Shown: positions 28,774-60,386, numbered from the stretch's first letter. The stretch is DNA of 64,000 bases from an uncultured delta proteobacterium (GCA_963847445.1 CAWJZV010000017.1:1-64000), one strand, 5' to 3'. The notes: generated by a model not told the origin, from the sequence alone. Numbers and translations: made by a program.

Positions 28774-28899
28774 TCGACCGTATGGTCGAGCCTATCGACT
28801 GTTTCGCCGAACCGTCCCGCCATTTCCCGCCGCCGGTATGAATAATCTCCAGCGAAATTGGCCGTCTCCCTAACCGCGAGCACTGGCACGTAAGCTGCT
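28774..28899 (+). promoter_or_regulatory. Enhancer motif 1 + sigma54 promoter
   Basis: TCGAC cgtatg GTCGA gccta TCGAC tgtttc GCCGA; TGGCACGTAAGCTGCT at 28884. Confidence 0.8.
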
Positions 28900-28943
28900 C
28901 TCATAGTCATTGTGAAAAGAAAATAGAAAGAAGGTACCTGATT

Positions 28944-29093
28944 ATGAGCCTGCTGTTGTTGATCGTTTTAGTGCTGTTGCTGGTCGGTGGTTTGCCCAAC
29001 TGGGGCTATCACAGCTATGGCTTCGCGCCGTCCGGTTTCGCCGGCATAGTGCTGCTGGTCGTGGTTGTTATGCTCCTGACCGGCCGGCTCTAA
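28944..29093 (+). CDS. DUF3309-family small membrane protein (49 aa; not in ORF track)
   Basis: MSLLLLIVLVLLLVGGLPNWGYHSYGFAPSGFAGIVLLVVVVMLLTGRL. Confidence 0.85.
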   Translation: MSLLLLIVLVLLLVGGLPNWGYHSYGFAPSGFAGIVLLVVVVMLLTGRL

Positions 29094-29221
29094 AAGGGGT
29101 CGCAAGCAAAATCACAAGGTAAGCCAATTCAGGGCGCAGGGTGTCACTCCAGAGGTTACTTGGAATTTGTCCCGGTAAGCCTGATTCGACCCTGCTAATC
29201 AATGCAACCGAGGAGGTTGAG

Positions 29222-29452
29222 ATGAAAAAGTTATTGTTGTTGTTAGGAGTGCTTTTGATCGGTGTCAGTCAAAGCGGCTGCATGTTATTGGGCGGGGCGG
29301 CGCTGGGAGCCATCGGGACAAGCGCGGGTTACGAGATCAACGCCAATAGCAAGATGGACCAGCTGGAATCTGATTACAAAGCCGAAAGAATATCACGCAG
29401 CGAATACCTGGCCCGCAAGTCGCAGCTAGAAAAAGGCTCGATCGTCTATTAG
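29222..29452 (+). CDS. Small glycine-rich lipoprotein (copy 1)
   Basis: GAGGAGG RBS; lipobox-like QSGC; paralog at 31401. Confidence 0.8.
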   Translation: MKKLLLLLGVLLIGVSQSGCMLLGGAALGAIGTSAGYEINANSKMDQLESDYKAERISRSEYLARKSQLEKGSIVY

Positions 29453-29597
29453 GAGCGATGATGATTCAAGGCTTCTATCTATGACGCCAGAATTAGACAG
29501 CAATTTACTTCAACCTAGTCGATGATTCGACAGTTATCGGCAGCAGCATTAACCGGATCCTTGCCAACGGATCCGAACACTGAAAAGGAGACGGTGT

Positions 29598-29810
29598 ATG
29601 TGGAACAAAGATGAGATCAAAGGTAAAGGCAAACAAATTTCCGGTGCGATCAAGGATAAAGCTGGGGAATTGATCAAGGACCGCAAACTCGAAGCCAAAG
29701 GCGAAGCTGAGCGGGTGGCCGGCAAGCTCCAGGAAAAGAGCGGCAAAGCACGCCGGAAAACCGGTGAGGCGGTACAAAAGGTCGGTAAGGCGATTGCCGG
29801 CAAAGTATAA
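29598..29810 (+). CDS. csbD: CsbD family stress protein
   Basis: MWNKDEIKGKGKQISGAIKDKAGELIKDRKLEAKGEAE. Confidence 0.9.
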   Translation: MWNKDEIKGKGKQISGAIKDKAGELIKDRKLEAKGEAERVAGKLQEKSGKARRKTGEAVQKVGKAIAGKV

Positions 29811-30219
29811 TCCAGTCATTCTCGGAGTAGTTAATAACGATGGCAGGCGGCAGAGAAACGTTGGTTAAATCCATTCACTCCCGCTGGGCATTGAACGGAG
29901 CTACGCGAAAGGCGTGCAATGTGATTTATGCGCGAACCACGGATCCGGCGGCATGATCGCCGCCTTGATCGGGCGCAAGGGCCGATGAAAGCCTGGCATG
30001 CACAACGCCAAGATCGTCACAGGGTAGATTATTCTGCCACGCTCATCAACTCGACGCTGTTTGGGTCGCCGGCTTCTGACGAAGGCTGGACGCGTCGCGA
30101 CAGGCACCCCGGCGAGCAGATTGAGCAAATGAACCAGCTTGCAGAACTAATGCCAACTGGTCGCCACTGACCAAGAGATCATCAGCGCACCGCGTCAAGT
30201 CTTTCTTTTCAGCGGCCAT

Positions 30220-30747
30220 ATGATCGACGCCGCCGGTCGCTCGCCAGCGCGCTTTCCGGCCGACAAGGAACCGCTTGCCGCTGCCGCCATTGAGAAACTG
30301 CTCGATGAGTTGGGCGCGGGCGCCGACGATGTGGCGATTTCCAGCGGCGCTTGCGGCGGCGATCTACTCTTTGCCGAGGCCTGTTGGCAACGCAGATTGC
30401 GCGTCGAGATCTACTTGCCATTCGTGGAAGAAGTATTCCTCAAAGAGTCCGTCAATTTTGCCGGCGAACATTGGCGGGAGAAGTTCTTTTGGGTCAAAGA
30501 GCACGTCCAGGGTTGGCATATTATGCCGCACGAGCTGGGAGCTACGCCCACCGGCGAAGATCCCTTTGCCGCGGTCAACCTGTGGATGCTCAATCAAGCG
30601 CTCGCTTACGGAACCAGGAAAGTGAGTTTTATCTGTCTATGGGATCGCCAAGCGGGTGACGGACCGGGAGGGACGAAGCATTTACACGATGCCATCGTCC
30701 AAGGCTCAGGCCAGGCTTATGTGCTCGATACGACGAAGCTGTGGTAA
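30220..30747 (+). CDS. Hypothetical protein, SLOG-like domain, probably N-truncated
   Basis: (FSGH)MID..GR..ARFP, SSGACGGDLLFAE, LWDRQAGDGPGGT. Confidence 0.55.
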   Translation: MIDAAGRSPARFPADKEPLAAAAIEKLLDELGAGADDVAISSGACGGDLLFAEACWQRRLRVEIYLPFVEEVFLKESVNFAGEHWREKFFWVKEHVQGWHIMPHELGATPTGEDPFAAVNLWMLNQALAYGTRKVSFICLWDRQAGDGPGGTKHLHDAIVQGSGQAYVLDTTKLW

Positions 30748-31011
30748 GCCGTCGCGAGCATCGACCAACACCAATGGTTGTAATTGCGGAGCTGGTCAAC
30801 GACCGAAACGATCGACAGAAATCTAACGCTTATGGGCGAGGGTTCCCAGGGACACAGCTCAAGCGAACGCTGGTATTTCATTCGCAGTATTGACCCACCA
30901 CGAAGAACGGTCCCTCGGTGTTTGACCCGATCGCTGCTGGTAGTATCTCAGTTGCCGATTAAGTCTACCGCTGCGCTAAACGAGTCGGTTTCGGTCCTGC
31001 CGAAATCTGCT

Positions 31012-31136
31012 TCGACGGTTTGGTCGAGAGTATCGACGGTTTAAACGAGCCGTTACTTGGTTTCCCTCTGACCGCCTCCAGAAGCTAGCGGAAACACAGT
31101 CTTTCCATCATCGAACGGTTCGGCACAGATAGTGCT
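31012..31136 (+). promoter_or_regulatory. Enhancer motif 2 + sigma54 promoter
   Basis: TCGAC ggtttg GTCGA gagta TCGAC ggttta AACGA; CGGCACAGATAGTGCT at 31121. Confidence 0.8.
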
Positions 31137-31179: not shown

Positions 31180-31260
31180 ATGGATACCTTATTAATCGTT
31201 CTCTTAGTGGTGTTTTTGGTCGGCGGTGGAGGCTGGGGATTTTCTCGTTGGCGCCGGTAG
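31180..31260 (+). CDS. 26-aa single-TM peptide (copy 1)
   Basis: GAGGAG RBS; MDTLLIVLLVVFLVGGGGWGFSRWRR; paralog at 61800 differs mostly at synonymous sites. Confidence 0.8.
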   Translation: MDTLLIVLLVVFLVGGGGWGFSRWRR

Positions 31261-31400
31261 CGCCCGCGGCCGTTGACCTGGCTGCGAAGTCGCCCAAGGT
31301 AAGCCAATTTAGGGCGCAGGGTTTTACTCCAGAGGTTACTTGGAATTTGTCCGGTAAGCCTGACTCGACCCTGCTAATCAATACAACCGAGGAGGTTGAG

Positions 31401-31631
31401 ATGAAAAAGTTATTGTTGTTGTTAGGAGTGCTCTTGATCGGTGTCAGTCAAAGCGGTTGCGCGTTCCTAGGCGGTGCGGCGCTGGGAGCCCTCGGCACAG
31501 GCGCGGGTTACGAGATCAACGCCAAGAGCAAGATGGACCAGCTGGAAGATGATTACAAAGCCGAGAGAATATCTCGTGCAGAATATGAGAGCCGTAAGTC
31601 ACAGCTAGAAAAAGGCTCGATCATCTATTAG
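31401..31631 (+). CDS. Small glycine-rich lipoprotein (copy 2)
   Basis: Near-identical to 29222..29452. Confidence 0.8.
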   Translation: MKKLLLLLGVLLIGVSQSGCAFLGGAALGALGTGAGYEINAKSKMDQLEDDYKAERISRAEYESRKSQLEKGSIIY

Positions 31632-31639
31632 GAGCGACT

Positions 31640-32035
31640 ATGACTCAAAGCAACCGTGCGGTACTGGCGTTCGCTCTGGGCTTGGCCCTGGTGACGAGCG
31701 TTGGTTGCAGCGACCACAATGTTTCCCTGGTGGGTAGAGATACGCTCCCCGCCAGGGCCAGTAAAACGGTCCGGAATGATATCGTGCGGACGGTGGAGCG
31801 GGTCGATACCGGCGCGAGCGTGATTCATCTTCGAGCCAGTCAGGGTCATCCCGCAATGGTTACATATAGCGCAGAGACCCGGGTGATGTATCTGGGGCGG
31901 GTCTATCCGGTCAGTCAACTGCAGTCCGGCGACGTCGTTGGCATGCAAATGCAGATGGACGCTCGTGGTAATCCCCACACGCATGCGATCGACCTGCAAA
32001 AGAGCAGCCGAGATTGGGCTCAGAGCCGAAATTAG
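31640..32035 (+). CDS. Hypothetical lipoprotein
   Basis: AGGAG RBS; signal peptide ending SVGC. Confidence 0.7.
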   Translation: MTQSNRAVLAFALGLALVTSVGCSDHNVSLVGRDTLPARASKTVRNDIVRTVERVDTGASVIHLRASQGHPAMVTYSAETRVMYLGRVYPVSQLQSGDVVGMQMQMDARGNPHTHAIDLQKSSRDWAQSRN

Positions 32036-32050: not shown

Positions 32051-32731
32051 ATGATTCAACAGACTCCCGAAGCGGAACGGTTCAAAGAGCAAATGCGCGA
32101 TTCGTTACGGCGCGAGACGATGAACTCTCGCGCTGTGACGATCCCGCGGCACTCGAATGTTTACACCTGCGGCGACCAGGACGAGATGGTCTATTTCATT
32201 GAGAGCGGTCAGATCAAACTGCTTATGGTCTCGCCCGAAGGCAAGGAGTGTCTCTTGGCGATCCATGGCAGCGGAGATATTTTCGGCGAGTTGTGCCTAT
32301 CCGGATTGGGCGCGCGGCACGAAACCGCGTCGGCGATGAAGGAAACCAAGTTAAAACAAATACCCTGTGCGCAGTTTTTTGCCCGTTTAAGCCGCGACGC
32401 GTTGTCGGAGGGATTCGTGCGTTATCTGGCCGTGCGCATTGCCGACCAACAACAAGTCATCGCCAATCTGGTGACGGTGGATAGCGAGCAGCGGCTCGGT
32501 AAGACACTGTTACAGTTGGCCCGCACCATGGGCAAGAAGGATCCGCACAGCATTCGCATCGAGTTGAAGATCACCCATGAGGAACTCTCCGAGATGGTCG
32601 GCACAACCCGGCCGAGGGTCAGCTTGTTCATGCAGCGGTTTCATAATCTCGGACTGATCGAGACCAACAAAGACCGTTTTTTCATCATCAAAGAAAAGCG
32701 ACTCACCGATTACTTGGCGCAGATTGCTTAG
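32051..32731 (+). CDS. Crp/Fnr family regulator (copy 2)
   Basis: Close paralog of 27954..28637; HTH GTTRPRVS. Confidence 0.9.
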   Translation: MIQQTPEAERFKEQMRDSLRRETMNSRAVTIPRHSNVYTCGDQDEMVYFIESGQIKLLMVSPEGKECLLAIHGSGDIFGELCLSGLGARHETASAMKETKLKQIPCAQFFARLSRDALSEGFVRYLAVRIADQQQVIANLVTVDSEQRLGKTLLQLARTMGKKDPHSIRIELKITHEELSEMVGTTRPRVSLFMQRFHNLGLIETNKDRFFIIKEKRLTDYLAQIA

Positions 32732-32755: not shown

Positions 32756-32894
32756 CCGTCCTTTTGGTCGAAAGGATCGATGGTTGTGCCGAGCGTTCTT
32801 TTATCTCCATATGTGATGCGCCGGTAATCCGCATCCAATTGAAAACGGCGCTTTCGCTCCCGCTCCGGTGTGGCATCGATAGTGTCGATAGTGC
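32756..32894 (+). promoter_or_regulatory. Enhancer motif 3 + sigma54 promoter disrupted by a 9-bp duplication
   Basis: CCGTC cttttg GTCGA aagga TCGAT ggttgt GCCGA; TGGCA-tcgatagtg-tcgatagtg-C at 32871. Confidence 0.6.
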
Positions 32895-32959
32895 CATAGT
32901 GCAGTAGATTGATGACGTAGGATACGAAATCAGCAAACAGCAAACGAGGAGAAACGATT

Positions 32960-33310
32960 ATGGTTGGATCATCAATGAACAAATCGCCGATGCTTTTACT
33001 GGTCGGCACTCTTATGGTCGCCGGATGCGCTGGCGGATCACTGACAACCCGTGAAAAGGGCGCCGGGATCGGTGCTGTCGGCGGCGCGGTTGCGGGCGGA
33101 CTCATTGGCGCCGCAGTCGGCCATCCAGGCGCCGGGGCGGCGATAGGTGGTGGTTTGGGCTTGGGCGCGGGTGTTTTGGTGGGTGACCAGATGCAGGGCC
33201 AAGGAAACCAGAACTCCACGCAAGACGAGAATATCCGGCAAAACCAACTGGAAATAGATCGTCAGCAAAGGGAGCTTGAGCGGCTGCGAAGAGAGCGCGC
33301 AGAGTATTAA
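32960..33310 (+). CDS. Glycine-zipper lipoprotein
   Basis: Lipobox VAGC; REKGAGIGAVGGAVAGGLIGAAVG. Confidence 0.85.
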   Translation: MVGSSMNKSPMLLLVGTLMVAGCAGGSLTTREKGAGIGAVGGAVAGGLIGAAVGHPGAGAAIGGGLGLGAGVLVGDQMQGQGNQNSTQDENIRQNQLEIDRQQRELERLRRERAEY

Positions 33311-33519: not shown

Positions 33520-34668
33520 ATGGAAGTACAGACTCATAGTGACGATACGTCAGAGGTTTCACTCGAGACTGAGGGTGATGCCACGCTCGTCGTGCAACTG
33601 TCAGGCGCCTGGCGACTGCAAAAGAGCGCCGCCTCTGCCGGCCAGGTGCAAAAAGCGCTCGAGAGTTCGCATATTCGCAGGGTTCGCTTCGAGGCAAAAG
33701 CTCTCTCATCTTGGGACAGCAGCATCCTGATGTTTTTGATGAAAGTGATCGAGCTCTGCCGCCAGCAGGACATAGTCACCGAGCGCGAAGGATTGCCGGA
33801 CGGCATTCGCCGTCTGCTTGAACTCGCTGAGATAGCACCGGAGCAGGAAGGCGCCAGACCGGCGGCGGATGCGCAGTCTTTTTTGGCACAGGTCGGTACC
33901 ACCTCGACGGGGTTTTACCTCTCTTTGTCAGAGATGCTGCACTTTCTCGGCGAGGTGACGTTGGCGTTCGTCAAGCTGGTCAGGATGCGGGCGCGCTACC
34001 GGAGCGCCGATCTATTTCTAATTATCCAAGAATGCGGCCCGCAAGCGCTGCCGATCGTCACGCTCATCAGCTTTTTAGTAGGCGTTATCATGGCATTTGT
34101 CGGCGCTGTTCAGCTTCAGCAATTCGGCGCCCAGCTCTATGTGGCGGACCTCGTCGGCATCGCCGTCGTCCGCGATATGGGCGCCATGATGACCGGGATC
34201 ATCATGGCGGGCCGGACCGGCGCCGCGTTCGCAGCCAAGCTCGGCACCATGAAGGTGACTCAGGAAATCGACGCATTGATCACGCTGGGATTCTCACCGC
34301 TGGAATTTTTGGTGTTGCCGCGCGTGATCGCGCTGTGCCTGATGATGCCTTTGTTGTGTCTGTACTCCGACCTGCTGGGAATCCTGGGCGGCGCCGCGGT
34401 GGGGCTGTGGATGCTCGACCTTTCGTGGACCACCTATTACCACCAAACGGTAAATGCGATCAGCCTAACGGCGCTGTTCGGCGGCGTCTTTAAAAGCGTG
34501 ACTTACGGCGTGCTGATCGCTCTTTCGGGATGTCTGCGCGGCATCCAGTGTGGTGGCAGCGCTTCGGCTGTTGGCGAGGCCGCGACTTCCGCCGTGGTCA
34601 CGAGCATCGTCTTCATCGTCGCGGCTTGCGGCGCTTTGTCCGTGATATTTTATATCATTGGGGTTTGA
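33520..34668 (+). CDS. mlaE: MlaE family permease with STAS-like N-terminus
   Basis: AGRTGAAFAAKLGTMKVTQEIDAL, VLPRVIA. Confidence 0.9.
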   Translation: MEVQTHSDDTSEVSLETEGDATLVVQLSGAWRLQKSAASAGQVQKALESSHIRRVRFEAKALSSWDSSILMFLMKVIELCRQQDIVTEREGLPDGIRRLLELAEIAPEQEGARPAADAQSFLAQVGTTSTGFYLSLSEMLHFLGEVTLAFVKLVRMRARYRSADLFLIIQECGPQALPIVTLISFLVGVIMAFVGAVQLQQFGAQLYVADLVGIAVVRDMGAMMTGIIMAGRTGAAFAAKLGTMKVTQEIDALITLGFSPLEFLVLPRVIALCLMMPLLCLYSDLLGILGGAAVGLWMLDLSWTTYYHQTVNAISLTALFGGVFKSVTYGVLIALSGCLRGIQCGGSASAVGEAATSAVVTSIVFIVAACGALSVIFYIIGV

Positions 34669-34669
34669 C

Positions 34670-39560: not shown

Positions 39561-39684
39561 TCGACCATTTGGTCGAAGCTCTCGACGCTTGTGACGAGCC
39601 GCAACTGCTCCATCGTGACAGCCTGAATAAATCTAAGGCAAATCCCGTGTGTTTCGCACTGGCGTGTCTGGCACACAACCTGCT
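39561..39684 (+). promoter_or_regulatory. Enhancer motif 4 + sigma54 promoter
   Basis: TCGAC catttg GTCGA agctc TCGAC gcttgt GACGA; TGGCACACAACCTGCT at 39669. Confidence 0.85.
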
Positions 39685-42358: not shown

Positions 42359-42483
42359 CCGACCCTTTGGTCGAAGCTCTCGACGCTGGCGTCGTGGCTG
42401 CGCGCCGATTCACCGCGATACCTGTCTTAATGTTTGAGGAAAGTCGCCTTGGTCTGGCGCCAAGATGCGGCACAACAGTTGCG
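42359..42483 (+). promoter_or_regulatory. Enhancer motif 5 + sigma54 promoter
   Basis: CCGAC cctttg GTCGA agctc TCGAC gctggc GTCGT; CGGCACAACAGTTGCG at 42468. Confidence 0.85.
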
Positions 42484-42525: not shown

Positions 42526-43518
42526 ATGAGAAGATTACGATCAGTTCTATCGCCGGTGATTACGGCAGCGGGTGTCTTGGCTCTGTCGGGTGTCGGCTTG
42601 GCTCAGACACCGAGTGGTTCGCACCGTGAGGCGAGCGCCAGGGCGCATGAATTCATGTCCAGTGCGCCTTGTCCACTGGCCAGGGTTACCAAAGAGAAAA
42701 TTACCGAGGAACAAGCGCGAGATCTGGCCCAAGGGTTTGCGGACAAAAACTGGAACGGCTTCAAAGTGGTGCGGCCGCTCAGCTACGGCGGCGGCTATAC
42801 TACCATGTGCTACCAGACAGCCAGCGCCTTTGTCGCACCTCCTCTAGCGGGCAACGCCGCGCCGGCACGTCCTCTAGCAGCCAACGCCGCGCCGACACGC
42901 CCTCTGGTCCTATACTCCGTCGAGTATTCCATGGACCTGAAAAATCCCGCGGGTGAAACGCGCAATCTTTGCGTCGATCAGTACGGATTCATCACGGAGT
43001 TCTGCGGCGATTTCGCCATGGCGGGCGCAACCGGTCCGATCGGCCCAGCTGGCGCGATGGGCCCTGCCGGCCCCATGGGAGCGCAAGGTCCAGCCGGAAC
43101 AGCGGGCGCGCAAGGTCAATTGGGCTCGGTAGGCCCCCAAGCCCAATCTGGCGCGGCAAAGCCATGGTCCACGTTCAGGGATTTCTTGTTCGATTTCGAT
43201 AAGTCGGAGATTCGATCTAACGAGACCAAGCATGTAACTGACATCGCGGCCTACATGAAGCAGCATCCAGCCGTCAATGTCGGAATCGACGGTCACACTG
43301 ATCCGCGCGGCACCGATGCTTTCAACCAAGGGCTGAGCGAGCGGCGTGTCAACGCCATTAGCGAGGCGCTGGTTAATGCCGGAGTGTCCGCAAGCAGGAT
43401 CAAGACAGGCGCCTTCGGTGAGTCGCAGCCCAAGTGCAGTGCGCCCACCGAGCCTTGCTGGCAGAGCGACCGCCGCGTCGAGGTGCTGATCGGCAACGCG
43501 CAAACAGCAAGCAGATAA
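42526..43518 (+). CDS. Secreted OmpA-family protein with collagen-like G-X-Y linker
   Basis: Signal peptide; GATGPIGPAGAMGPAGPMGAQGPAG; FDFDKS, GHTDPRG..FNQGLSERR, DRRVE. Confidence 0.85.
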   Translation: MRRLRSVLSPVITAAGVLALSGVGLAQTPSGSHREASARAHEFMSSAPCPLARVTKEKITEEQARDLAQGFADKNWNGFKVVRPLSYGGGYTTMCYQTASAFVAPPLAGNAAPARPLAANAAPTRPLVLYSVEYSMDLKNPAGETRNLCVDQYGFITEFCGDFAMAGATGPIGPAGAMGPAGPMGAQGPAGTAGAQGQLGSVGPQAQSGAAKPWSTFRDFLFDFDKSEIRSNETKHVTDIAAYMKQHPAVNVGIDGHTDPRGTDAFNQGLSERRVNAISEALVNAGVSASRIKTGAFGESQPKCSAPTEPCWQSDRRVEVLIGNAQTASR

Positions 43519-43613: not shown

Positions 43614-43651
43614 TGTATTAGGGTGTAATAGTGACTCTAAAGATTCCCTCC

Positions 43652-45367
43652 ATGCGCAGGATTTTTTTACCAAGCCACTTTCTCGTCTCCGGTCTGCTAC
43701 TTCTCGTCTTGGCCGCACTCTATGTTTTTTTTCAGGCGCGCAGCCTCAAGCACGCATTCCTGATACAGACTGAGAACAAAGGAGTCGCGGTGGCCAAGGC
43801 GATGGAGGCTAGTGTTAGAAGTGCCATCGTTGGCAACGCGCTCTTGGAGGATCTGATCGGGCAGCGTCTTTTCGACAATGCCCGCTTGATCGACCAACTG
43901 CTGCGCGCTCGGGATGTGGATGAGGCGCTGCTTAAACAGATCAGCGCCATGAACCGCTTGCAAAAAATCGATCTGCTCAATCAGGAGGGCCAACCGTGGG
44001 ACCTCGTAGCATTGTCGGCATCGATGGCAATGGCAAGGGTTGGCTATGACGTCTCTCAGCGCCAACAAATGAAAACAGTGGTATGGGGAAAACGTTGGCA
44101 GTTGGCCAACGGAAGTGACAAAAATACCGGCGCCGAGCCGCCGGCTAGAATCAAGCAAAAGGATTTCTGGAAAGGCAGCGCTTTTGGCGCTGCCGTCGGT
44201 GCCCGCAGCTTCCCCGGCATCATCGCGGTCCACGCCAACGCCGACTATATATTGAACTTCGAGAAAGAGATCGGAGTGCAAACTCAGATCGAGAATCTGG
44301 GCAAACATTCAGACAGTGAGTTCATCGCTTTCCTCGATAGCAATTTGAATGTCGTCGCCCATACCGACCGGGGCCGTATCGGACAGCAGGAAAAAGACCC
44401 GCTGCTTGGGAGGGTGAAGGCGAACGGTAAGCCTTTCGGCCAGGTCGTCGTGCGCAGCGACGGAAAACGCTACTTCGAGGTGGTGGAACCTGTGGCGAAT
44501 TTGGGTTTCCTCAAGATCGGTCTGTCGGTGCAATCGATGGAGGCCGCGTGGCAGAACAGCTTGCAGGCCATCGTCATTTTGGGCATGGCAATTGTCGCCG
44601 CGGGCATTCTCGGCATGGCGGCGATTTTCCATAACCAGAACTCGCATCTGCAAGAGGTCAAAGCTTTGGAAATCGAAGTGTTACGCAGAGAACGCCTTGC
44701 GGCGCTGGGAAACGTAGCGGCCACCGTCGCCCACGAGGTCAGAAACCCGCTCAATGCCATTTCGATGGGACTGCAACGTCTCAAGTTGGAATTTCAACCG
44801 ACTGAGGATCGCGATCAATACTCCCGTCTGACCGAGCTGATGTTGGGGGAATCGCGTCGCATCAATTCCATTGTCGAACAATTCCTCTCGCTGGCGCGTC
44901 CAGTCGAACTCAAAACCGAATCCTTGCCGCTGCAAGAAGTTCTCAAAGAGTTGGCGGCATTGGAAGAACGACACGCTCGGCAATCCAACGTGCGAATCGA
45001 AATTATCGCTGCGCGTGATCTGCCGGCGCTCAAGGCGGACCCCAGCCACCTTACCCAAGTTTTGCTGAATCTTATGCTTAATGGCATACAAGCGATGCCG
45101 CAAGGTGGAACCCTGACCCTGGAAGCGAAAAGGTCGAACGGTAACATTCTCATCGCCGTGACCGATACCGGAACTGGGATCGCGCCAGAACACGAGGGGC
45201 GAATTTTTGACCCTTACTTCACGACCAAGGTGCAGGGCACCGGGCTGGGTCTGGCGATTTCGCGCCGGCTTATCGAAGCTCACGGCGGAACGATTAAGGT
45301 TGCTAACCAAGCGAGCGGCGGAAGTCGCTTCGAAATTTCCTTGCCGCTCAACCGCGTGGAGGTGTAA
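43652..45367 (+). CDS. Membrane sensor histidine kinase (NtrB/ZraS-like)
   Basis: Two TMs; AHEVRNPL; N, G1, F and G2 boxes. Confidence 0.9.
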   Translation: MRRIFLPSHFLVSGLLLLVLAALYVFFQARSLKHAFLIQTENKGVAVAKAMEASVRSAIVGNALLEDLIGQRLFDNARLIDQLLRARDVDEALLKQISAMNRLQKIDLLNQEGQPWDLVALSASMAMARVGYDVSQRQQMKTVVWGKRWQLANGSDKNTGAEPPARIKQKDFWKGSAFGAAVGARSFPGIIAVHANADYILNFEKEIGVQTQIENLGKHSDSEFIAFLDSNLNVVAHTDRGRIGQQEKDPLLGRVKANGKPFGQVVVRSDGKRYFEVVEPVANLGFLKIGLSVQSMEAAWQNSLQAIVILGMAIVAAGILGMAAIFHNQNSHLQEVKALEIEVLRRERLAALGNVAATVAHEVRNPLNAISMGLQRLKLEFQPTEDRDQYSRLTELMLGESRRINSIVEQFLSLARPVELKTESLPLQEVLKELAALEERHARQSNVRIEIIAARDLPALKADPSHLTQVLLNLMLNGIQAMPQGGTLTLEAKRSNGNILIAVTDTGTGIAPEHEGRIFDPYFTTKVQGTGLGLAISRRLIEAHGGTIKVANQASGGSRFEISLPLNRVEV

Positions 45368-46789
45368 ATGCTCAATCGTTTTCATATTCTGATCGTCGAC
45401 GATGAACCGGTGCAACGCGAATTGGTTGGCGGCTTTCTCAAAAAACAAGGCTTTGAAGTGACCCTAGCCGATAGTGCTGAGAGAGCCTTGGAACTCTTTC
45501 GTCAGGACGCCTTTGATCTGATCCTGACCGATCAAAGGATGGCAAACATGTCGGGCTTGGATTTGCTGCAAGCCGTGCACACCATCAATCCGGAAACGCC
45601 GGTCATATTAGTTACGGCGTACGGCACTATCGAAGCGGCGGTCGCCGCCCTCAAGCAGGGCGCCGTCGATTACTTGACCAAACCGGTGAATTTGGAGGAA
45701 CTGCTGCAGCGCATTCGACAGGTGAGCGACCGCTACCGAATCATCAACGAGAACCGCGAGCTGCGGGAAGCGTTGGGCGAACGCCATCGCATCGAAGGGA
45801 TTATCGGCGAAAGCGGGCAAATGCTTGAGGTCCTCTCTTTGGTGCGCCGGGCGGCGCCAAGTGAAGCAACCGTTTTGATCCGGGGTGAGAGCGGCACGGG
45901 AAAAGAGCTGATTGCCCAAGCCATTCATTTTGCCAGCCCAAGGGCGCGCGCTCCTCTCGTCAAGGTCAACTGCGCGGCGCTTCCCGAAGCGCTTCTCGAA
46001 TCGGAATTGTTCGGCCACGAAAAAGGCGCCTTTACCGGCGCTATAGCGTCACGCCAAGGGCGCTTTGAGCTGGCCAATGGCGGCACACTGTTTCTCGACG
46101 AAATCGGCGACCTGCCATTGCACTTGCAGGCGAAGCTCCTGCGCGTGTTGCAGGAGCGGGAATACGAGAAGGTCGGCTCCAGCCGTTCGGTCAAGGTCAA
46201 CGTCAGGATCCTGGCTGCCAGCCATCGGCCCCTGGAGGCACTCCTAAAAGCCGGACAGTTGCGCGAAGATCTCTACTACCGGCTCAATGTCGTCACGATA
46301 CTCCTGCCACCGTTGCGCGAGAGACGCTCGGATCTTGCGCTGCTGATCGACCACTTCGTCAAGCGATTCGCGGCGAAGAACGGCAAGACGATCAGCGGCC
46401 TTACCGCTGAAGGCCGGGATATTCTTTTGCGCTACGACTATCCGGGAAATGTCCGTGAGCTGGAAAATATTATCGAGCGCGCGGTGGTCCTGACCAGGGA
46501 TGATGTGATCGGCAGTAGTGATTTACCTGTCACTGTCCAAGAAAAGGAAGCAGAGGATGATCACGAAGCCAACCTTGCGGTCGCAGTCGAACGGCTCGAG
46601 CGCCGCATGATACGGGAAGCGCTGGCCCGCTTCGAAGGGGTCCAGACGCGCGCCGCGGAACTACTGGGAATGAGTGAACGGGCGCTGCGCTATAAACTGA
46701 CAAAATACGGCTTTCGGGAGGAAGCCTCAGATACCGATTCCGAGCCGCAAGTTCCAGCCGCCGAAAAAAGTGCTGAATCAGAGGATTGA
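45368..46789 (+). CDS. sigma54-dependent response regulator (NtrC-family bEBP)
   Basis: REC; GESGTGKE, ESELFGHEKGAFTGA, YPGNVREL; Fis-type HTH. Confidence 0.95.
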   Translation: MLNRFHILIVDDEPVQRELVGGFLKKQGFEVTLADSAERALELFRQDAFDLILTDQRMANMSGLDLLQAVHTINPETPVILVTAYGTIEAAVAALKQGAVDYLTKPVNLEELLQRIRQVSDRYRIINENRELREALGERHRIEGIIGESGQMLEVLSLVRRAAPSEATVLIRGESGTGKELIAQAIHFASPRARAPLVKVNCAALPEALLESELFGHEKGAFTGAIASRQGRFELANGGTLFLDEIGDLPLHLQAKLLRVLQEREYEKVGSSRSVKVNVRILAASHRPLEALLKAGQLREDLYYRLNVVTILLPPLRERRSDLALLIDHFVKRFAAKNGKTISGLTAEGRDILLRYDYPGNVRELENIIERAVVLTRDDVIGSSDLPVTVQEKEAEDDHEANLAVAVERLERRMIREALARFEGVQTRAAELLGMSERALRYKLTKYGFREEASDTDSEPQVPAAEKSAESED

Positions 46790-51186: not shown

Positions 51187-51202
51187 CGTCTAATTTTAGA
51201 CA
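51187..51202. promoter_or_regulatory. Crp-family box
   Basis: CGTCT-aatttt-AGACA upstream of 51286. Confidence 0.65.
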
Positions 51203-51285
51203 GCAATCCTTTTCAAGCAGCGTAAATGTATCAAGCCAGGCTCGATATTTTTGTCGCGATGGTTAGCGACTGGTTCGGAGGATAT

Positions 51286-51756: not shown

Positions 51757-51808
51757 TTATCGGTGTCAGATCGGCTATGTTCTGCGATGATGGAGCCGCA
51801 TGGAAGAA

Positions 51809-51995: not shown

Positions 51996-52236
51996 TAACC
52001 TGCTTACACAACTTTGACGAAACCCTGGGAGATCTCATAGCGCCGACATCGACGTCGCCAGAAGCGTGAACGTCGTTTCAACTTATACTTTCACTCCGTC
52101 GCAGTTCCGCTGGCGCAACCCCATTATCGCTGCTTGAAGTTCCGACATCCGATTCGAGCCAAGCATTGCGACCCGGCACTTCTAAAGGTCTTCTCGCGCT
52201 GAGTTCAGTCGTATATAGTCGTGTCGAGGTCTTGGC

Positions 52237-53286: not shown

Positions 53287-53301
53287 AGTCAACGGCGAAC
53301 A

Positions 53302-54298: not shown

Positions 54299-54427
54299 TG
54301 CGTAATTGACGCGCAATGAGCGCCAGCAGTGCGCGCTTATTTTGCTATCCGGCTCGGATCGAGAGGACGGATTGAACCGTCTCGACAACCAGGAAGTAGC
54401 AGCAGCCTGAATCCTAAAAAAGAGAAA

Positions 54428-54443
54428 TGTCGGCTTTCTGACA
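54428..54443. promoter_or_regulatory. CooA-type Crp box upstream of Crp copy 3
   Basis: TGTCG-gctttc-TGACA; TGaTATACA about 20 bp downstream. Confidence 0.55.
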
Positions 54444-54780
54444 GATTCATTCGCCAATTCTGATATACACGGCAGACATCTTAGTGCGGCACATAGAATT
54501 TAATGAAACTAAAGGATCTGCCTGACTGGTCTAAACGTTTTGGCTCGCTTGAGCAGTCGGAGTCGCGCCGTTTTAAAAAGTGCCGAATCTTCGCCGTTGG
54601 GTCACTTCGCAATGCTCGTTATTGACTCCGACGGAGTCCAGAACCTCACATTGCTCGAGGTGGGTGCAGGTAAAATTAACAAAGTTCTTGCCGTGCTTAA
54701 GACTCATATTGGACGGCCACTCGATGAAATCGCGCAACTCGAAATAATCGACTGATGACCCAGTCGGGGACATCCTACTT

Positions 54781-55599
54781 ATGACCGACACTAATGCTAA
54801 AGCTCTACAGCAATTAAGAGACCTCGCCTCATATCCGTTACCGCAGTTGGAAAAGCTCGCGGCCAATCTGTCGATAAGACCATTCAAGACAAACAAAATT
54901 ATCTTCGATCAAAACGAGGACGCAAAGGTCGTTTATCTACTGCTATCAGGGGTCGTTAAGGTTTCTTACCTCCACAGCGATGAAAACCAAACGATAGTCA
55001 GTCTCCATCCGGCGGGCGAGTTTTTCGGTCTCGATGCGCTGATTCCCCAAATGAAGCATCCTTTCAGATGCGAAGCGTTCGAAAACTGCACGGTCGGTAC
55101 GATCAAGCCGCAAACCCTCGTTGAAATACTCCTGGGGATCTCCTATGAACCTTTCCTTCGGTGGCACACCGGGGCAATGAATGCCGGGCGAAAAATCTAC
55201 GTCCATTGCATCAAAGGCATTGGACTTGATCTGCGTAAACGTCTCGCTCTCGAACTCATGAATTTGGCCGATCGTTTCGGCAGGGCCGACGCTCGCGGGA
55301 TCGTGATTGATGTAAATATCAGTCATGAAGTCCTCGCCGGTATCGTCGGTGCGTCGCGCCAGCAGGTCACGGAACACCTCAATCAATTTGATCGTGAGAA
55401 GTGCATTTCAAGAGATGGACGTCGGATCATAATAAACGCGCAAAAACTTCGGCCGATCATAGAGAATCGGCGATCTAGTAAGAATCGTAAGCCGCTTGCC
55501 GTTTCACCGCGCACTCGTCCCAGTCTAAGCCGACCGTTTAGTCGAAAGTTTCGACGCTTTCGACGAGCCAGCTCGCTCTGCTCATCCGTGACGGATTAG
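54781..55599 (+). CDS. Crp/Fnr family regulator (RQ-type recognition helix)
   Basis: GEFFG; HTH ISHEVLAGIVGASRQQVTEHL; the C-terminal ~45 aa may be read-through. Confidence 0.85.
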   Translation: MTDTNAKALQQLRDLASYPLPQLEKLAANLSIRPFKTNKIIFDQNEDAKVVYLLLSGVVKVSYLHSDENQTIVSLHPAGEFFGLDALIPQMKHPFRCEAFENCTVGTIKPQTLVEILLGISYEPFLRWHTGAMNAGRKIYVHCIKGIGLDLRKRLALELMNLADRFGRADARGIVIDVNISHEVLAGIVGASRQQVTEHLNQFDREKCISRDGRRIIINAQKLRPIIENRRSSKNRKPLAVSPRTRPSLSRPFSRKFRRFRRASSLCSSVTD

Positions 55600-55656
55600 A
55601 GATCTCTCGAACCATCTAGCCTTTCCTTCAGGATGAGTTGCGGCACAAAGTTTGCT
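55530..55656 (+). promoter_or_regulatory. Enhancer motif 6 + sigma54 promoter
   Basis: CCGAC cgttta GTCGA aagtt TCGAC gctttc GACGA; CGGCACAAAGTTTGCT at 55641. Confidence 0.85.
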
Positions 55657-55722
55657 CGTACTTTGTCTGGATCGTCTTTACAAAGGAACGAAATGCTTGC
55701 AGGGCCGAGAAAAGGAGTTTCG

Positions 55723-56205
55723 ATGGGCTTTGACTGGGCGACATGGTGGCGCGGCTTTCTCGGAACTGCTCCTGATCGGGATCAAGTGGCGCTTGAAATC
55801 TTGCGCCAACGGTACATCGACCAGCGGCAGAGGGAAAGTCAATTGACCGAACACGCTGACAAGATGCATTATCCGCAATTTGGTGAAAAACTGCTCCAAA
55901 TCGCGGCGGACAAAAATAAACATGCCGAGTGGATCGGCGAAAGGATTATCGCTCTTGGAGGCAAGCTCCCCGAGGTGCCTGTGCGCCGCTCGACGAACAT
56001 AAACAGTTGGCAGTATTTGCAGCTGGATCTAGCGGAGGAAAAACGTTGCGCCGACCGCCTGCCAGAGCAAATTTGGCGTCTCGAACCCGAGCATCCCGAC
56101 ATTAGCAATTTCCTGCAACGGATTGCCGCAGCGGAGAAGCAGCATCTTCAAGCAATCAACGACATGCTGATGCGCAGCGATGGGTTTGCGCTATCGCTCG
56201 CTTAG
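55723..56205 (+). CDS. Ferritin-like protein
   Basis: AAGGAG RBS; D..KHAEWIGERIIALGG, DLAEE, AEKQH. Confidence 0.75.
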   Translation: MGFDWATWWRGFLGTAPDRDQVALEILRQRYIDQRQRESQLTEHADKMHYPQFGEKLLQIAADKNKHAEWIGERIIALGGKLPEVPVRRSTNINSWQYLQLDLAEEKRCADRLPEQIWRLEPEHPDISNFLQRIAAAEKQHLQAINDMLMRSDGFALSLA

Positions 56206-56308
56206 GACCGTGGTTAACTCTCCCCTTCGTAGGACAAAATACGCATAAGCCAAGTCGTATCCGCATACGATTCAATCGCTCTTATCAGTGAGCGTTGAGT
56301 AATTTTTT

Positions 56309-56433
56309 CCGACCTTTTAGTCGAAAGTTTCGACGCTTTCGACGGGCCTTGCTGTTTTTCCTTCTGACAAGCTAGAGAAAATATCGGATCATGCGGCCTT
56401 TCCCACACGGCAAGGCGTGGCACAAGGCTTGCG
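56309..56433 (+). promoter_or_regulatory. Enhancer motif 7 + sigma54 promoter
   Basis: CCGAC ctttta GTCGA aagtt TCGAC gctttc GACGG; TGGCACAAGGCTTGCG at 56418. Confidence 0.85.
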
Positions 56434-56656
56434 CATCATCAATTATCAATCGCCCGAACAGAGGTGTGACATGCGCACGGCAATGTTGATCGTCTTGATG
56501 ATTTGCTGCTGACCGCTGCACCGTCACTTGGCCTCCTGGTCGGTCGTAAGCTGACTACTTGCCGCGGCGGGCTCGAAGCGCAAATCGGCTCTACTTAACC
56601 AACATAACCGGGATCGGCCCTAAAGGCGCCGGTCTTGGAAACAGGGGAGGTGCTTT

Positions 56657-56875
56657 ATGCCTTTAATTCAACTCGTGGTGGTCCTGATCGTGGTGGGTGT
56701 GCTTCTTGGGCTGGTGAATCGTTACATTCCGATGGCAGGATCGATCAAGTCGATCCTGAATGGGGTTGTGGTCATCGGCGTAGTTCTGTGGCTGCTGAAT
56801 ATTTTCGGACTTTTCAATTCACTGTCGGCGATCCGGGTGGGCAAGCTGTCTTGGCTCGGCGCGATTGGCGCCTGA
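56657..56875 (+). CDS. Small two-TM membrane protein (Thivi_2564-like)
   Basis: GGAGG RBS; MPLIQLVVVLIVVGVLLGLVNRYIPMAGSIKSILN. Confidence 0.75.
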   Translation: MPLIQLVVVLIVVGVLLGLVNRYIPMAGSIKSILNGVVVIGVVLWLLNIFGLFNSLSAIRVGKLSWLGAIGA

Positions 56876-56940
56876 GTCGCGATAGGATCTCTGACTGCCG
56901 GTTGTGTAACCGATAGTCAGAGATCAAGAGATTGCCAGCC

Positions 56941-59368
56941 ATGTTGTTTTGGTCATTGCTGTTTCTCTTGCTTGTTCTAGCCGTTAGCCTATTGGACATT
57001 GCTTTCACTCCGGCACGCGCGCGAATCAGTTTGCCGGGGTTCCGTCGTCACACTCGCTGGGACTGGGCGACTTCCATTCCAACCGGGTTCAGACGTGTGC
57101 GAATGAGGGCTCTGGCGGCGGCTCGGGCAATCCGTGGTAGCCGCTTCGCCAAACGACAGTGGCAGAGAGGCGTCCTTAATCTTGTCGTTTGTTCAACGGT
57201 GATCATTACGACTCTAGTTTCAATCGGAGTTTATCACGTCAATTTTAACCGCAGCGATTTGCCTGACGTAGAAGCATTGGCCCGCTTTGAGTTTCCGACC
57301 ATCGGCACCGTCTACGACGCCGCCGGCCTGCCGCTCATTGAACTGGCAAAAGAGTACCGCAAGATCACCCGGTATAAGGACATTCCGCCGATTGTTCGCG
57401 ATGCCATCATCGCCGCCGAAGACAAGCGATTTTTCTCACATAGCGGGGTTGACTATGCGATCATTCCTCGCCTGCTGAGCAAAATCAGAATGCGCGCCTT
57501 TGGCGCCGGTCTGACTCGGATGGCAAGGGGAAGCGGCCAGTCCGGCGCTGCTGCCGCAAGGCGGCTCGACGATCACCCAACAGCTCGTGCGCGGTCATTT
57601 TCTCAAAAACCTGACGGCGAAGGAAAACAGCCACCAGCTGCAGTATGACGGCATGGTAGCGTGGGCGCTGTCTAAGCTGATCGGCGCGCGCACCGTCAAC
57701 ATGTTGGTTCGCAAGATCGAGGAGATTCGGCTCTCGTTGTGGATCGAAGAGGAGATGCAAAAGCGTTTCGGTTCGAAACGACAAGCTAAGGAAGAAATTC
57801 TCGCCCGCTACGCCAGCTTAATCTACATGGGAGACGGCCAGTACGGGTTCGCCACCGCAGCGCAATACTATTTTGGCCGGCCGCTGGCGAGGTTGACCGC
57901 CAATGACGCCGACCAGGCGGCGCTGCTCGCCGGTATCGCCAAGGCACCGCGTTACTACGCGCCCAACGCGAAGGATACCGAGCGAGTGCTGCGCCGCCGA
58001 AATCAAACCCTAAGCCTGATGGCCGCCAACGGTTTGATTTCCCAGGACCGTGCACGTGCCGCCGAGCAGCTCCCCATTGAAGTGATCGAGCGGCGCCAAG
58101 ACAAGCTGGGTCAGGCGCCTGCGGTCCTTGGAACGATCCTCCAGGAACTCAAAGGCCGAGGCGGCGCGGATCTCACTGCTGAAGATCTCTTTCAGGGGCG
58201 CATCCAGGTTTACTCGACGGTGGATGTCCGGGTGCAGCAAATTGCCAACCAAGCGCTGGAACGCGGCCTCGAACTTTACGAAAAACGACATCCCAGTGCC
58301 AAAGGGATAATCCAAGGTTCTGTCGTCGTGTTGCGCAACCACGATGCGAGCATCCTGGCCGAGACCGGCGGTCGGCAGTTCTACCAGGACCGCTCCGCCC
58401 GATACAGCGACTTTAACCGCGTCACCAAGTCCCTGCGGCAACCCGGGTCGACGATGAAGCCCTTCGCCTACCTGGCGGCCTTTCGCCAGGGAGGTTTCAA
58501 TCTCGAAACGATGGTTCCCGACGAACCGATCGGGGTTCGGGATGGCGAGAAACAGAGCACCAAATGGATCTCAAACTACGATCGACAATTCCGCGGCATG
58601 ATTCCGCTGCGCGAGGCGCTCGCAGAATCGAGCAACGCCGTGGCGATTTGGCTCACAGGGGAGATTGGCATTGGCAGTGTTCTGGCCACCTCACGCAGTC
58701 TAGGGGTGAAGACGCGGTTGCAGCCCTATCTGACCACGGCGTTGGGAGCGTCCGAAGTGAATTTGCTGGAGCTCGCCAATGCCTACCGCACCATGGCGTC
58801 GGGACTGTTCGCCGAGCCCTATGTGATCCGAAAAATCGTCCGCGAATCGGGCGAGGTGGTGGCTAAGGAAAAGGAGCGGTCAGCGGTCGCAGTCAACGAC
58901 CCGGCGCTCGCGCTGATTCAGGAAGGTCTGCGCGGTGTCGTGCGCATGCCCAGCGGCACGGCGCATACGCTTAACCCGAGCGTTTTCCCGATCGCGGTCA
59001 TGGGCAAGACCGGGACGACCAATGAGTTCAGGGATGCGCTCTTTGTCGGCTCGACCTTCGGCCCTGAAGGGATCACGGTCGCCGTTCGTGTCGGCTTTGA
59101 CGACAACCGTTCGCTCGGAACTGAAGAAACCGGCGGCAGGGTCGCGCTGCCGGTGTTCAGAGAACTGATGCTGCGAGTTTACCGCGACAAGCTGGTCGGG
59201 CCTGTGCCGCGGTTTCCAGCGCAAATGGAACAGAATATCAACGACTATCTCGCCGCCGGCTCGGTGCCTACCGGAGAATTCATGAGCGCTGTTAACTCTT
59301 CCCATCAATCGGCGCCGCTTGCGGTATGGGTCGAAGCCGGAAGCGCAACAGTGCAACGACAACCATAG
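56941..59368 (+). CDS. Class A penicillin-binding protein (transglycosylase-transpeptidase), frameshifted
   Basis: AAEDKRFFSHSGVD; RKIEE; RQPGSTMKP, SSN, KTGT. Confidence 0.85.
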
Positions 59369-59420
59369 AAGAATCGACCGGCTGTCCGTTCGCGCGGCGC
59401 GCAATAATTCTTGGCAAAAG

Positions 59421-59463
59421 TGTCTAATATTGGACAGAAACAGTTTTTGCGCCAGCCTAGGTT
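59421..59463 (+). promoter_or_regulatory. Crp-family box with class II -10
   Basis: TGTCT-aatatt-GGACA 59421-59436; TAGGTT 59458-59463. Confidence 0.7.
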
Positions 59464-59563
59464 CCATTTCAAATATCACCATTAAGTTTCAGCCCCGAGG
59501 TTTTTTGGAAACGTTAAAAGCAGATAGGCTTAAACCTAGGCACGCCATCCGGAGGATGCCGCG

Positions 59564-59860
59564 ATGAACAAATTAATGTTGCTGGCGGTTCTCATATTGG
59601 CTCCCGGTCTCGACGGGAATAGCTCTGCATATTCAAACCAAGCGGTGGCCGCCGATGTTTCCAGAGAGCGGCCTGGCGCGCGACCCGAGCTCGAACATGG
59701 CACCGAACAGCAGATCATCGCGCCCGCCGAAAGGTATTATAGTAACGAAAAAAGATTGCTTACCGCCGCCGGTCCGGCTAACGAGCGTGAAGTGAAAAGA
59801 TTAAAGTTGATATTTCTGCTGATGATGAGCCTGGGTCAATCTCGCGCCCCAGTTCATTAG
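59564..59860 (+). CDS. Hypothetical secreted protein
   Basis: GGAGG RBS; signal-like N-terminus. Confidence 0.55.
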   Translation: MNKLMLLAVLILAPGLDGNSSAYSNQAVAADVSRERPGARPELEHGTEQQIIAPAERYYSNEKRLLTAAGPANEREVKRLKLIFLLMMSLGQSRAPVH

Positions 59861-59878
59861 GAAAACCGTTCGAGCGAT

Positions 59879-59962
59879 CCGACCCTTTAGTCGAAAGTTG
59901 CGACGCGATCGGCGAGACCGTTGCGGCCTTTCCCACTTTCAGAGTGAGGCACAATATTTGCC
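59879..59962 (+). promoter_or_regulatory. Enhancer motif 8 + sigma54 promoter (short spacing)
   Basis: CCGAC ccttta GTCGA aagtt GCGAC gcgatc GGCGA; AGGCACAATATTTGCC at 59947. Confidence 0.75.
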
Positions 59963-60011
59963 CTAAAAAATTCCAGCAAGTCCGCGGGTCGCCGAAGGCG
60001 GAGAGATGATT

Positions 60012-60185
60012 ATGGACAAGATCATTTTGTTTTTGTCGATTGGGCTTATCGGTTGGTGGGTAGGAAACCTGGCGGGACAAGATCAATACGCGCAGGTATT
60101 AGGGGCCGATGCCAGTGTGCTCGAAATAATAATGGGAATTGTCGGCGCCGGCTACTTGTTCATGTTCACCTCCGGGACGCAATGA
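60012..60185 (+). CDS. GlsB/YeaQ/YmgE-like small membrane protein (57 aa; not in ORF track)
   Basis: MDKIILFLSIGLIGWWVGNLAG...LEIIMGIVGAGYLF. Confidence 0.55.
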   Translation: MDKIILFLSIGLIGWWVGNLAGQDQYAQVLGADASVLEIIMGIVGAGYLFMFTSGTQ

Positions 60186-60259
60186 CTCGACTAATAACCG
60201 CCGCGCGGACGGATTAAATCGACCCAGGCCGATCAGTTCTGAAAGACACGACCCGCAGC

Positions 60260-60386
60260 CCGACTATTTGGTCGAAGCTCTCGACCATGTCGACGAACGT
60301 ACGGTGGTTTCCCTCGATCTTGCTAAATGTTTTTCTTGTGAAATCCAGCGTCTTCCTTCGCGCCCAGATCTGGCATGCATTCTGCT
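60260..60386 (+). promoter_or_regulatory. Enhancer motif 9 + sigma54 promoter
   Basis: CCGAC tatttg GTCGA agctc TCGAC catgtc GACGA; TGGCATGCATTCTGCT at 60371. Confidence 0.85.

Follow-up and report, generated by a model that had tools for sequence, protein, structure and literature searches.

A 46-kb island of stress- and envelope-type genes with a shared putative enhancer upstream of predicted sigma-54 promoters in an uncultured delta proteobacterium

The window analyzed here is a 64,000-nucleotide stretch of DNA from an uncultured delta proteobacterium (GCA_963847445.1, CAWJZV010000017.1:1-64000). Coordinates are positions in this window (C17:1-64000) of a 7.19-Mb assembly in 48 contigs, and sites beyond it are given with their contig label. 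From position 28774 onward, the window holds a head-to-tail series of small membrane, periplasmic, and envelope genes arranged in cassettes. A cassette opens with a 37-bp double palindrome (the putative enhancer) followed by a -24/-12 promoter element, and one of the cassettes leads into genes for a sensor histidine kinase and an NtrC-family response regulator, the activator. We consider it likely that this locus is a 46-kb island in which small genes for stress and envelope functions are under about 10–12 sigma-54 promoters with a common enhancer, and that the activator encoded in the island is the protein that binds it.

Enhancer-promoter cassettes of the island

An earlier note on this DNA, made from the sequence alone, had described nine copies of the double palindrome. 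All nine were recovered on the + strand using the full pattern with up to three mismatches, with starts at 28774, 31012, 32756, 39561, 42359, 55530, 56309, 59879, and 60260. The exact core GTCGA-N5-TCGAC has eight matches in the window compared to 0.14 expected from shuffles, and the full pattern at up to three mismatches has 19, including weaker reverse-strand readings, compared to 0.05 expected. A scan of the whole assembly added two sites past the window, C17:66507 and C17:74241, both followed by a promoter at +110. The nine cassettes of the earlier note are therefore all real, and the total is 11–12 rather than nine. All 11 sites lie on one strand within one 46-kb stretch. In a genome-wide scan with a position weight matrix (PWM), which the earlier note had proposed, the 11 sites scored 45–62 bits (25–59 in leave-one-out scoring). 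The best non-site match in 7.19 Mb scored 17.4 bits and was the reverse strand of a site, and the next scored 14.7. The motif is thus specific to the island, with no comparable copy outside it in the PWM scan of the assembly.

Each enhancer is composed of two 16-bp dyads, TCGACC-N4-GGTCGA followed by TCGACg-N6-gnCGA, with starts 21 bp apart, which places both dyads on the same face of the DNA. Two dyads on one helical face, held at a constrained position 80–150 bp upstream of a promoter, have the architecture of a tandem-dimer enhancer. Measured from the motif start, the GG of the promoter lies at the distances given in the earlier note (111, 110, 116, 109, 110, 112, 110, 69, and 112 bp). A GGCAY-N6-TGC element is present at 10 of the 11 cassettes, nine times at 109–112 bp and once at 69 bp, and also at a twelfth promoter. 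It fits the GG-N10-GC layout that defines sigma-54 promoters (TGGCAC-N5-TTGCW). The genome has 566 copies of this element in 14.38 million positions, so that about 0.002 matches would be expected at 11 sites in a 5-nt window, where nine were observed. The single rpoN gene of the genome is located on contig C9 (Sigma54_DBD match of 212 bits). In cassette 8, the GG at 69 bp is about four helical turns below the 110–111 bp seen elsewhere.

The disruption that had been reported in the -24/-12 element of site 3 is due to a 9-nt tandem repeat. Between 32872 and 32907, the 9-nt unit occurs three times in tandem (TCGATAGTG, TCGATAGTG, CCATAGTG), and the -12 element is out of register. The orthologous promoter in a related genome (G044) is intact. 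The repeat may naturally switch off the glycine-zipper/Mla operon, or it may reflect a variant of the strain or of the assembly.

The cassettes of the window, their genes, and the regulator operon are as follows.

28774..28898, + strand: cassette 1, enhancer 28774-28810, promoter 28885-28898 (GGCACGTAAGCTGC); genes for DUF3309 (28944-29093), a lipoprotein (29141-29452), CsbD (29598-29810), and a protein without an assigned family (30220-30747)
31012..31135, + strand: cassette 2, enhancer 31012-31048, promoter 31122-31135; genes for a 26-aa membrane peptide (31180-31260), two hypothetical/lipoprotein genes (31248-32035), and a Crp/FNR-like protein (32051-32731)
32756..32907, + strand: cassette 3, enhancer 32756-32792, broken -24/-12 element from 32872; genes for a glycine-zipper lipoprotein (32960-33310) and for MlaE-STAS, ABC ATPase, MlaD, and auxiliary lipoprotein (Mla-like, 33520-37084)
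39561..39683, + strand: cassette 4, enhancer 39561-39597, promoter 39670-39683; genes for a 46-aa Cys-rich protein (39793-39933), small membrane proteins, dodecin (41116-41331), and MlaC (41392-42213)
42359..42482, + strand: cassette 5 (putatively autoregulatory), enhancer 42359-42395, promoter 42469-42482 (GGCACAACAGTTGC)
42526..43518, + strand: OmpA-like protein, first gene of the regulator operon behind cassette 5
43631..45367, + strand: sensor histidine kinase with a weak single-Cache periplasmic domain, HisKA, and HATPase_c
45368..46789, + strand: sigma-54 activator, the putative enhancer binder, with REC, AAA+ carrying GAFTGA, and HTH_8
55530..55655, + strand: cassette 6, enhancer 55530-55566, promoter 55642-55655; gene for a ferritin-like protein (55723-56205)
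56309..56432, + strand: cassette 7, enhancer 56309-56345, promoter 56419-56432; genes for a Thivi_2564-family membrane protein (56657-56875) and a class A penicillin-binding protein in two frames (56932-59368)
59879..59961, + strand: cassette 8 (short form), enhancer 59879-59915, promoter 59948-59961; gene for a small membrane protein (60006-60185)
60260..60385, + strand: cassette 9, enhancer 60260-60296, promoter 60372-60385; genes for hypothetical proteins (60416-60703 and 61051-61479)
61745..61880, + strand: twelfth promoter (61745-61758) with a decayed upstream site; second 26-aa peptide gene (61800-61880), followed by genes for Ku (62030-62881), a MerR-TPR protein (62832-63683), and LigD (from 63690)

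The gene labels of the earlier note were confirmed with Pfam and NCBIfam for DUF3309, the glycine zipper, OmpA, the ferritin-like protein, and Thivi_2564. The labels "GlsB-like" (60006-60185) and "Zn-ribbon" (39793-39933) were not, and neither protein has a family match at E <= 0.01. Small membrane and periplasmic proteins of the island include DUF3309, CsbD (three genes), a glycine zipper, entericidin, two BON proteins, and YflT-like, holin-X-like, Thivi_2564-family, and LapA-like proteins, together with three copies of the 26-aa peptide. An envelope set comprises the Mla-like proteins (MlaE-STAS, ABC ATPase, MlaD, auxiliary lipoprotein, and MlaC), the OmpA-like protein, and the class A penicillin-binding protein. 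Other genes code for dodecin, the ferritin-like protein, an M48 peptidase, BrkB, an AI-2E-type transporter, an endonuclease/exonuclease/phosphatase-family protein, Ku, and LigD, and several island proteins have no family match in Pfam or NCBIfam.

The hydrophobic 26-aa peptide (MDT[LI]LIV..GGGGWG[FY]SRWRR) is encoded by the first gene behind three promoters (31180-31260, 61800-61880, and C17:66677-66757); its relatives in other genomes are 67–89% identical, and its length is below the reach of the family scans used. The class A penicillin-binding protein is read in overlapping frames (56932-57648 and 57587-59368) that split the transglycosylase domain, which suggests a frameshift or a sequencing error. 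Two adjoining genes are dodecin-like, a degenerate one at 40938-41132 (E = 3e-4) and a second at 41116-41331 (1e-26). The middle of the island also contains genes that are on the opposite strand or lack a cassette, namely a KaiC-like ATPase with PAS and HisKA fragments (47770-50377, - strand) and a lone receiver (51226-51756); KaiC-like genes also occur near the kinase-activator unit in two other genomes (G083 and G101). The G+C content of the island (28700 to C17:77300) is 0.553 compared to 0.567–0.572 elsewhere on the contig, a slight difference.

Start codons with Shine-Dalgarno-like sequences occur ~45–225 nt past the promoters. Scans for sigma-70-like hexamers gave no excess over shuffles (7 compared to 9.9, and 8 compared to 5.2), and terminator-like sites were barely above them (31 compared to 22.2, and 16 compared to 12.0), so neither scan helps to define operons. 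Outside the island, four pairs of a single dyad and a promoter were found, where about eight are expected by chance among 654 single dyads; this chance-level count gives no evidence for members there. Two of the four seem plausible, namely the single TCGAC-N6-GTCGA dyads at C42:135014 (sigma-54-like promoter at +107, before a small lipoprotein) and at C28:60724 (sigma-54-like promoter at +162, before a YflT-like protein), and either may be a regulon member. Two metatranscriptome and two DNA runs, all available as assembled contigs in which starts and strand are unreadable, were compared with 42300-62299. RNA-library contigs cover the ompA-like gene, 55703-57201, and 60099-62299, and word depth is higher over these parts than over 50971-55639, with DNA run X1 roughly flat. 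Contig depth cannot rank genes and RNA libraries may hold DNA, and no conclusion on expression is drawn.

Conservation of cassettes and regulator operon in related genomes

A sequence-only model of a 44-bp site was run on 31 genomes of the same genus and on 123 genomes of the order, with the unpublished genomes G005 and G085 included in the tallies as counted rows. Sites in the 31 genus genomes form clusters of 2–10, with one orientation per cluster, on the same contig as a 79–91% identical activator. One site is always ~2.9–3.1 kb upstream of the activator gene, indicating a conserved and putatively autoregulated operon. Across 20 fetched loci, the promoter lies at 108–112 bp in 47 of 53 matrix matches; the six exceptions are a promoterless sequence seen twice, another promoterless site, a GGCCC variant, a weak match, and a reverse-strand reading. 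When sites were defined independently of the promoter and a promoter was accepted within 55–150 bp, the distance from motif to promoter was 108–112 bp for 75 of the 83 distinct sites that the fetched loci contain. Three of the eight outliers are reverse-strand or out-of-register matches, and five are real (69, 99, 101, 102, and 102 bp). Spacings in family f3 of the order are 91, 102, 102, 103, 103, and 113 bp. The outlying spacings differ from ~111 bp by roughly one, two, or four helical turns (steps of ~10.5 bp), and whole-turn steps are expected when a short loop ties site and promoter to a fixed face of the helix.

Outside the two elements, the spacer has its own composition. Its center is AT-rich (0.69–0.70 compared to 0.39–0.46 in most flanking bins), and CT-rich pentamers (TTTCC, TTCCC, and similar) are present in 44 of 75 spacers compared to 26.5 +/- 3.9 in shuffles. 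The pentamers fall into two clusters, ~5–20 nt past the enhancer and ~15–25 nt before the GG (for example, in 28811-28884 and 56346-56418). CT-rich motifs in sigma-54 promoters have been linked to insulation from read-through (bioRxiv 10.1101/086108), and such a function would fit the head-to-tail operons seen here.

Alignment of 12 orthologous ompA promoters showed that the site, a central block, and the promoter are all conserved, and orthologous promoters across species retain both the enhancer and the -24/-12 element. These alignments bear on the idea that the cassettes are repeat copies (of a mobile element that carries a promoter, for example, or from a local duplication of recent date) and not a working regulon. 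Confinement of every copy to one strand of one 46-kb stretch would be expected of such repeats, as would the extra similarity within cassette subgroups, the triplicate 26-aa peptide gene, and the loss of the promoter or site in a few copies. Yet the spacers between site and promoter are divergent, as the earlier note had argued in setting aside simple duplication, with a mean column identity of 54% over whole cassettes. In other species and genera, orthologous cassettes precede orthologous genes and retain the site as well as the promoter, there are no copies in the genome outside the island, and spacing is held at 108–112 bp or at whole helical turns. We therefore regard repeat copying without regulatory function as highly improbable. 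A miniature inverted-repeat transposable element (MITE) or other dispersed repeat, a possibility also named in the earlier note, is excluded by the confinement to the 46-kb island and by the orthology of cassettes across species; terminal repeats, target duplications, and scattered copies were not seen.

At the level of the order, the site model matched 41 of the 123 genomes (36 of 89 in family f1, four of five in f2, none of 28 in f3, and the genome G000), and an activator match at E <= 1e-150 was found in 70. Site and activator occur together in 33 genomes, the site only in eight, the activator only in 37 (27 of them in f3, where the site has diverged beyond the reach of the model), and neither in 45. 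Twelve extra loci were then fetched, 11 from genomes with an activator only and one further. A TCGAC-type tandem site and a -24/-12 element are located upstream of the kinase-activator operon in 11 of the 12, and the locus L156 is partial, which indicates that the site model was too strict and that the site is not truly missing. The variant in f3 is TCGAC-N6-GTCGA-N6-TCGAC-N6-GGCGC, with dyad starts 22 bp apart. In three genomes (G068, G077, and G112), the only model match is located immediately before the kinase-activator operon, and two others (G027 and G029) have the same placement.

A unit of enhancer, sigma-54 promoter, periplasmic-protein gene, kinase, and activator is thus found in all three families of the order. 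In this genus its first gene is OmpA-like, in f2 and in several genera of f1 it codes for a secreted Gly/Met-rich protein of small size, and in f3 (six loci) it codes for DegP/HtrA. Weak Metal_resist matches were detected in two of five scanned Gly/Met-rich proteins (19.4 and 17.3 bits compared to a cut-off of 29.2).

The probable enhancer binder and the proposed regulon

The activator has Pfam matches to Response_reg (4.5e-33), Sigma54_activat (2.7e-72), AAA_lid_14 (5.1e-27), and HTH_8 (3.3e-14). Its alignment with ZraR contains GHEKGAFTGA, the Walker A motif GESGTGKE, and an Asp aligned with the receiver Asp of ZraR. Kinase and activator are both downstream of the OmpA-like gene behind site 5, an arrangement that would make the system autoregulatory. 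The 33 orthologues read from fetched loci all share one recognition helix, (S/T)ERALRYKL, which is different in the other activators of the genome and in Escherichia coli ZraR. A search of a wider collection of genome contigs with the activator gave, among the matches listed, no orthologues but generic NtrC homologues of at most 55% identity. Atlas look-alikes of the kinase fall in clusters of Acidobacteriota or Binatota, which is a lead at most. From its linkage to the sites, its co-distribution with them, and its conserved recognition helix, the island's activator is most likely the enhancer binder.

Several points weigh against this assignment or against the regulon as drawn here. The promoter at site 3 is broken, and cassette 12 has a promoter but no intact site. 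The statistical support is overstated by the tallies, as related genomes are not independent samples. The three HU/IHF-family genes of the genome are all below the IHF-alpha cut-off (best 99.9 compared to 120.25 bits), and the putative general-stress role is deduced from the gene content as named in Pfam. Eight site-positive genomes have no activator match at E <= 1e-150. The genome has 36 matches to the sigma-54 activator domain PF00158, of which 30 are strong and several are pieces of one split gene, and linkage and co-distribution are what the choice of the local activator depends on. Lastly, a 5-N6-5 inverted repeat is the classical CRP-type layout, and a Crp-like protein is conserved in the islands of 11 genomes (G044, G018, G015, G014, G019, G043, G003, G083, G079, G071, and G101).

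The counts of site-only genomes and of PF00158 matches are also what speaks for binding by another sigma-54 activator of the genome, encoded outside the island. Six of the eight site-only genomes are in 270–710 contigs, four genomes (G003, G072, G107, and G033) are 66–88% complete, and G044 has a partial activator match. The site and the regulator operon are physically linked in every fetched island or unit where the contig allows, and the recognition helix is constant wherever the TCGAC half-site is kept. Orthologues of the island's activator are absent from 251 sampled genomes of other orders of the class at E <= 1e-170, and the motif was not searched outside the order. On this evidence, an activator from elsewhere in the genome is an unlikely binder.

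The Crp-like proteins lead to a different candidate, in which the palindromes are bound by the Crp/FNR-like regulators of the island (27954-28637 and 32051-32731) and the sigma-54 activator acts from elsewhere or from solution. Both paralogues have cNMP-binding and HTH_Crp_2 domains, and one of them is the last gene of the cassette 2 operon. Distribution does not follow the site, however. A Crp-like protein is present in 28 of 41 site-positive genomes and missing in 13, is present in 30 of 82 site-negative genomes, and is found in none of the five f2 and none of the 28 f3 genomes, though both families keep the site beside the kinase-activator pair. In the five genomes with the site directly upstream of that operon (G027, G029, G068, G077, and G112), the flanks fetched around the site contain no Crp-like gene. 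An activator is required at sigma-54 promoters, and the cassettes contain no alternative conserved upstream element for it. Binding by the Crp-like regulators is accordingly judged improbable, slightly more so than binding by an outside activator.

With the island's own activator as the preferred binder, the locus is best described as a conserved, well-defined sigma-54 regulon with an identifiable two-component regulator. The proposal of the earlier note that one activator-binding enhancer serves sigma-54 promoters of stress-type genes is supported by the single rpoN, the fixed spacing in 75 of 83 sites, the conservation across species, and the absence of a dispersed repeat. In the proposed mechanism, each dyad would be bound by a dimer of the NtrC-family response regulator (45368-46789). 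The Cache-type kinase (43631-45367) would sense a periplasmic or envelope signal and phosphorylate the regulator, which would build an ATPase ring at the enhancer and reach sigma-54 RNA polymerase ~110 bp downstream through a DNA loop over the AT-rich center. About 10–11 island promoters would be opened in this way, including that of the regulator's own operon, which would create positive feedback. The regulon would supply small stress proteins of the membrane and periplasm, Mla proteins for lipid asymmetry, wall proteins, and Ku/LigD, and its output would be an envelope or general-stress response like those to desiccation, osmotic stress, or stationary phase.

In its ancestral core, the system resembles a ZraSR/AtoSC-type envelope-stress two-component unit that has grown into an island in this lineage. 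A more far-reaching reading, which we hold only tentatively and consider rather doubtful, is that this sigma-54 two-component system is the master general-stress switch of the lineage, in the role that RpoS, SigB, or EcfG have in other bacteria, and was built by repeated copying of the enhancer-promoter cassette within the island. Such a switch, if real, would run an all-or-none, leak-free stress program with positive feedback, and if the regulon is the general stress response of the organism, it would be an example of such a response based on sigma-54. The predictions amount to a complete and testable wiring diagram for an uncultured lineage (kinase, activator, site, 10–12 promoters, and ~40 genes). 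They provide a regulatory context for families of obscure role, such as DUF3309, Thivi_2564, the 26-aa membrane peptide, and several small proteins, and they outline a route from a one-operon envelope-stress circuit to a large regulon through cassette multiplication. The spacing data, at 108–112 bp or whole turns off, are a natural experiment on enhancer-promoter phasing.

Comparison with known systems

The closest resemblance is to ZraPSR of E. coli and Salmonella, where a membrane kinase likewise works with an activator of the REC-AAA+-HTH_8 type; ZraR and the activator of the island share 46% identity. In both systems, the regulator's own operon and a periplasmic protein gene are switched on (here by prediction) from sigma-54 promoters through paired dyads, and the small secreted Gly/Met-rich protein encoded by the first gene in relatives may be a further likeness. 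Differences are found in the binding site, since the E. coli zraP-zraS intergenic region has an inverted pair of GAGTAAAAATGACTCGC without TCGAC-N6-GTCGA, and in gene orientation, which is divergent in ZraPSR and uniform in the island. The ZraP-type partner is an OmpA-like gene in this genome and DegP/HtrA in f3, and matches to Metal_resist in relatives are weak. Against the NCBIfam equivalog models, the activator scores 439.7 for ZraR (cut-off 760) and the kinase 244.8 for ZraS (cut-off 479), its best model. With scores below these cut-offs, the island system is outside the equivalog, and as a predicted autoregulated sigma-54 envelope-stress unit with a periplasmic first gene it would resemble ZraPSR in its working. 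E. coli ZraR directly controls zraP, zraSR, and perhaps mgtA, and an envelope-stress role has been proposed for ZraSR (PMC7657598). As described there, the E. coli regulon is small compared to the 10–12 predicted promoters of the island.

Of the NCBIfam models, AtoC scores highest with the activator (526.1, cut-off 714) and AtoS second highest with the kinase (231.8, cut-off 646), and both scores are below the cut-offs. The scanned island genes include no catabolic genes of the ato type. NtrC at glnAp2 and DctD at dctA act through two dyads on one face of the DNA, ~80–150 bp upstream of a -24/-12 promoter, by looping. The island shares this layout and differs in half-site sequence and in serving co-oriented stress genes rather than nitrogen or transport genes.

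CsbD, YflT, BON (OsmY-type), entericidin, ferritin-like proteins, and Ku/LigD are typical of the SigB regulon in Bacillus, the RpoS regulon in E. coli, and the EcfG regulon in Alphaproteobacteria. The gene families overlap with those of the island, whereas control in the island would be exerted by sigma-54 with an ATP-dependent activator and not by a sigma-70-family factor. The island promoters are of the -24/-12 type and not of the kind used by sigma-70-family stress factors, and no protein of the genome reaches the cut-off of the RpoS model (best 293.8 compared to 378.7). Sigma-54 activators for envelope and general stress have been listed in Desulfovibrio (PMC4641369), so the concept of sigma-54 stress control is not new. 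The main text of that paper contains neither TCGAC nor GTCGA, and no description of this motif or regulon was found in the literature searched, including PMC7657598, PMC4641369, and PMC12316311, with figures and supplements outside the scope. As judged from sequence comparison, the island system is an apparently undescribed member of a well-known kind of control system, and it stands out for its size, its co-oriented arrangement, its strict helical phasing, and its general-stress-like genes.

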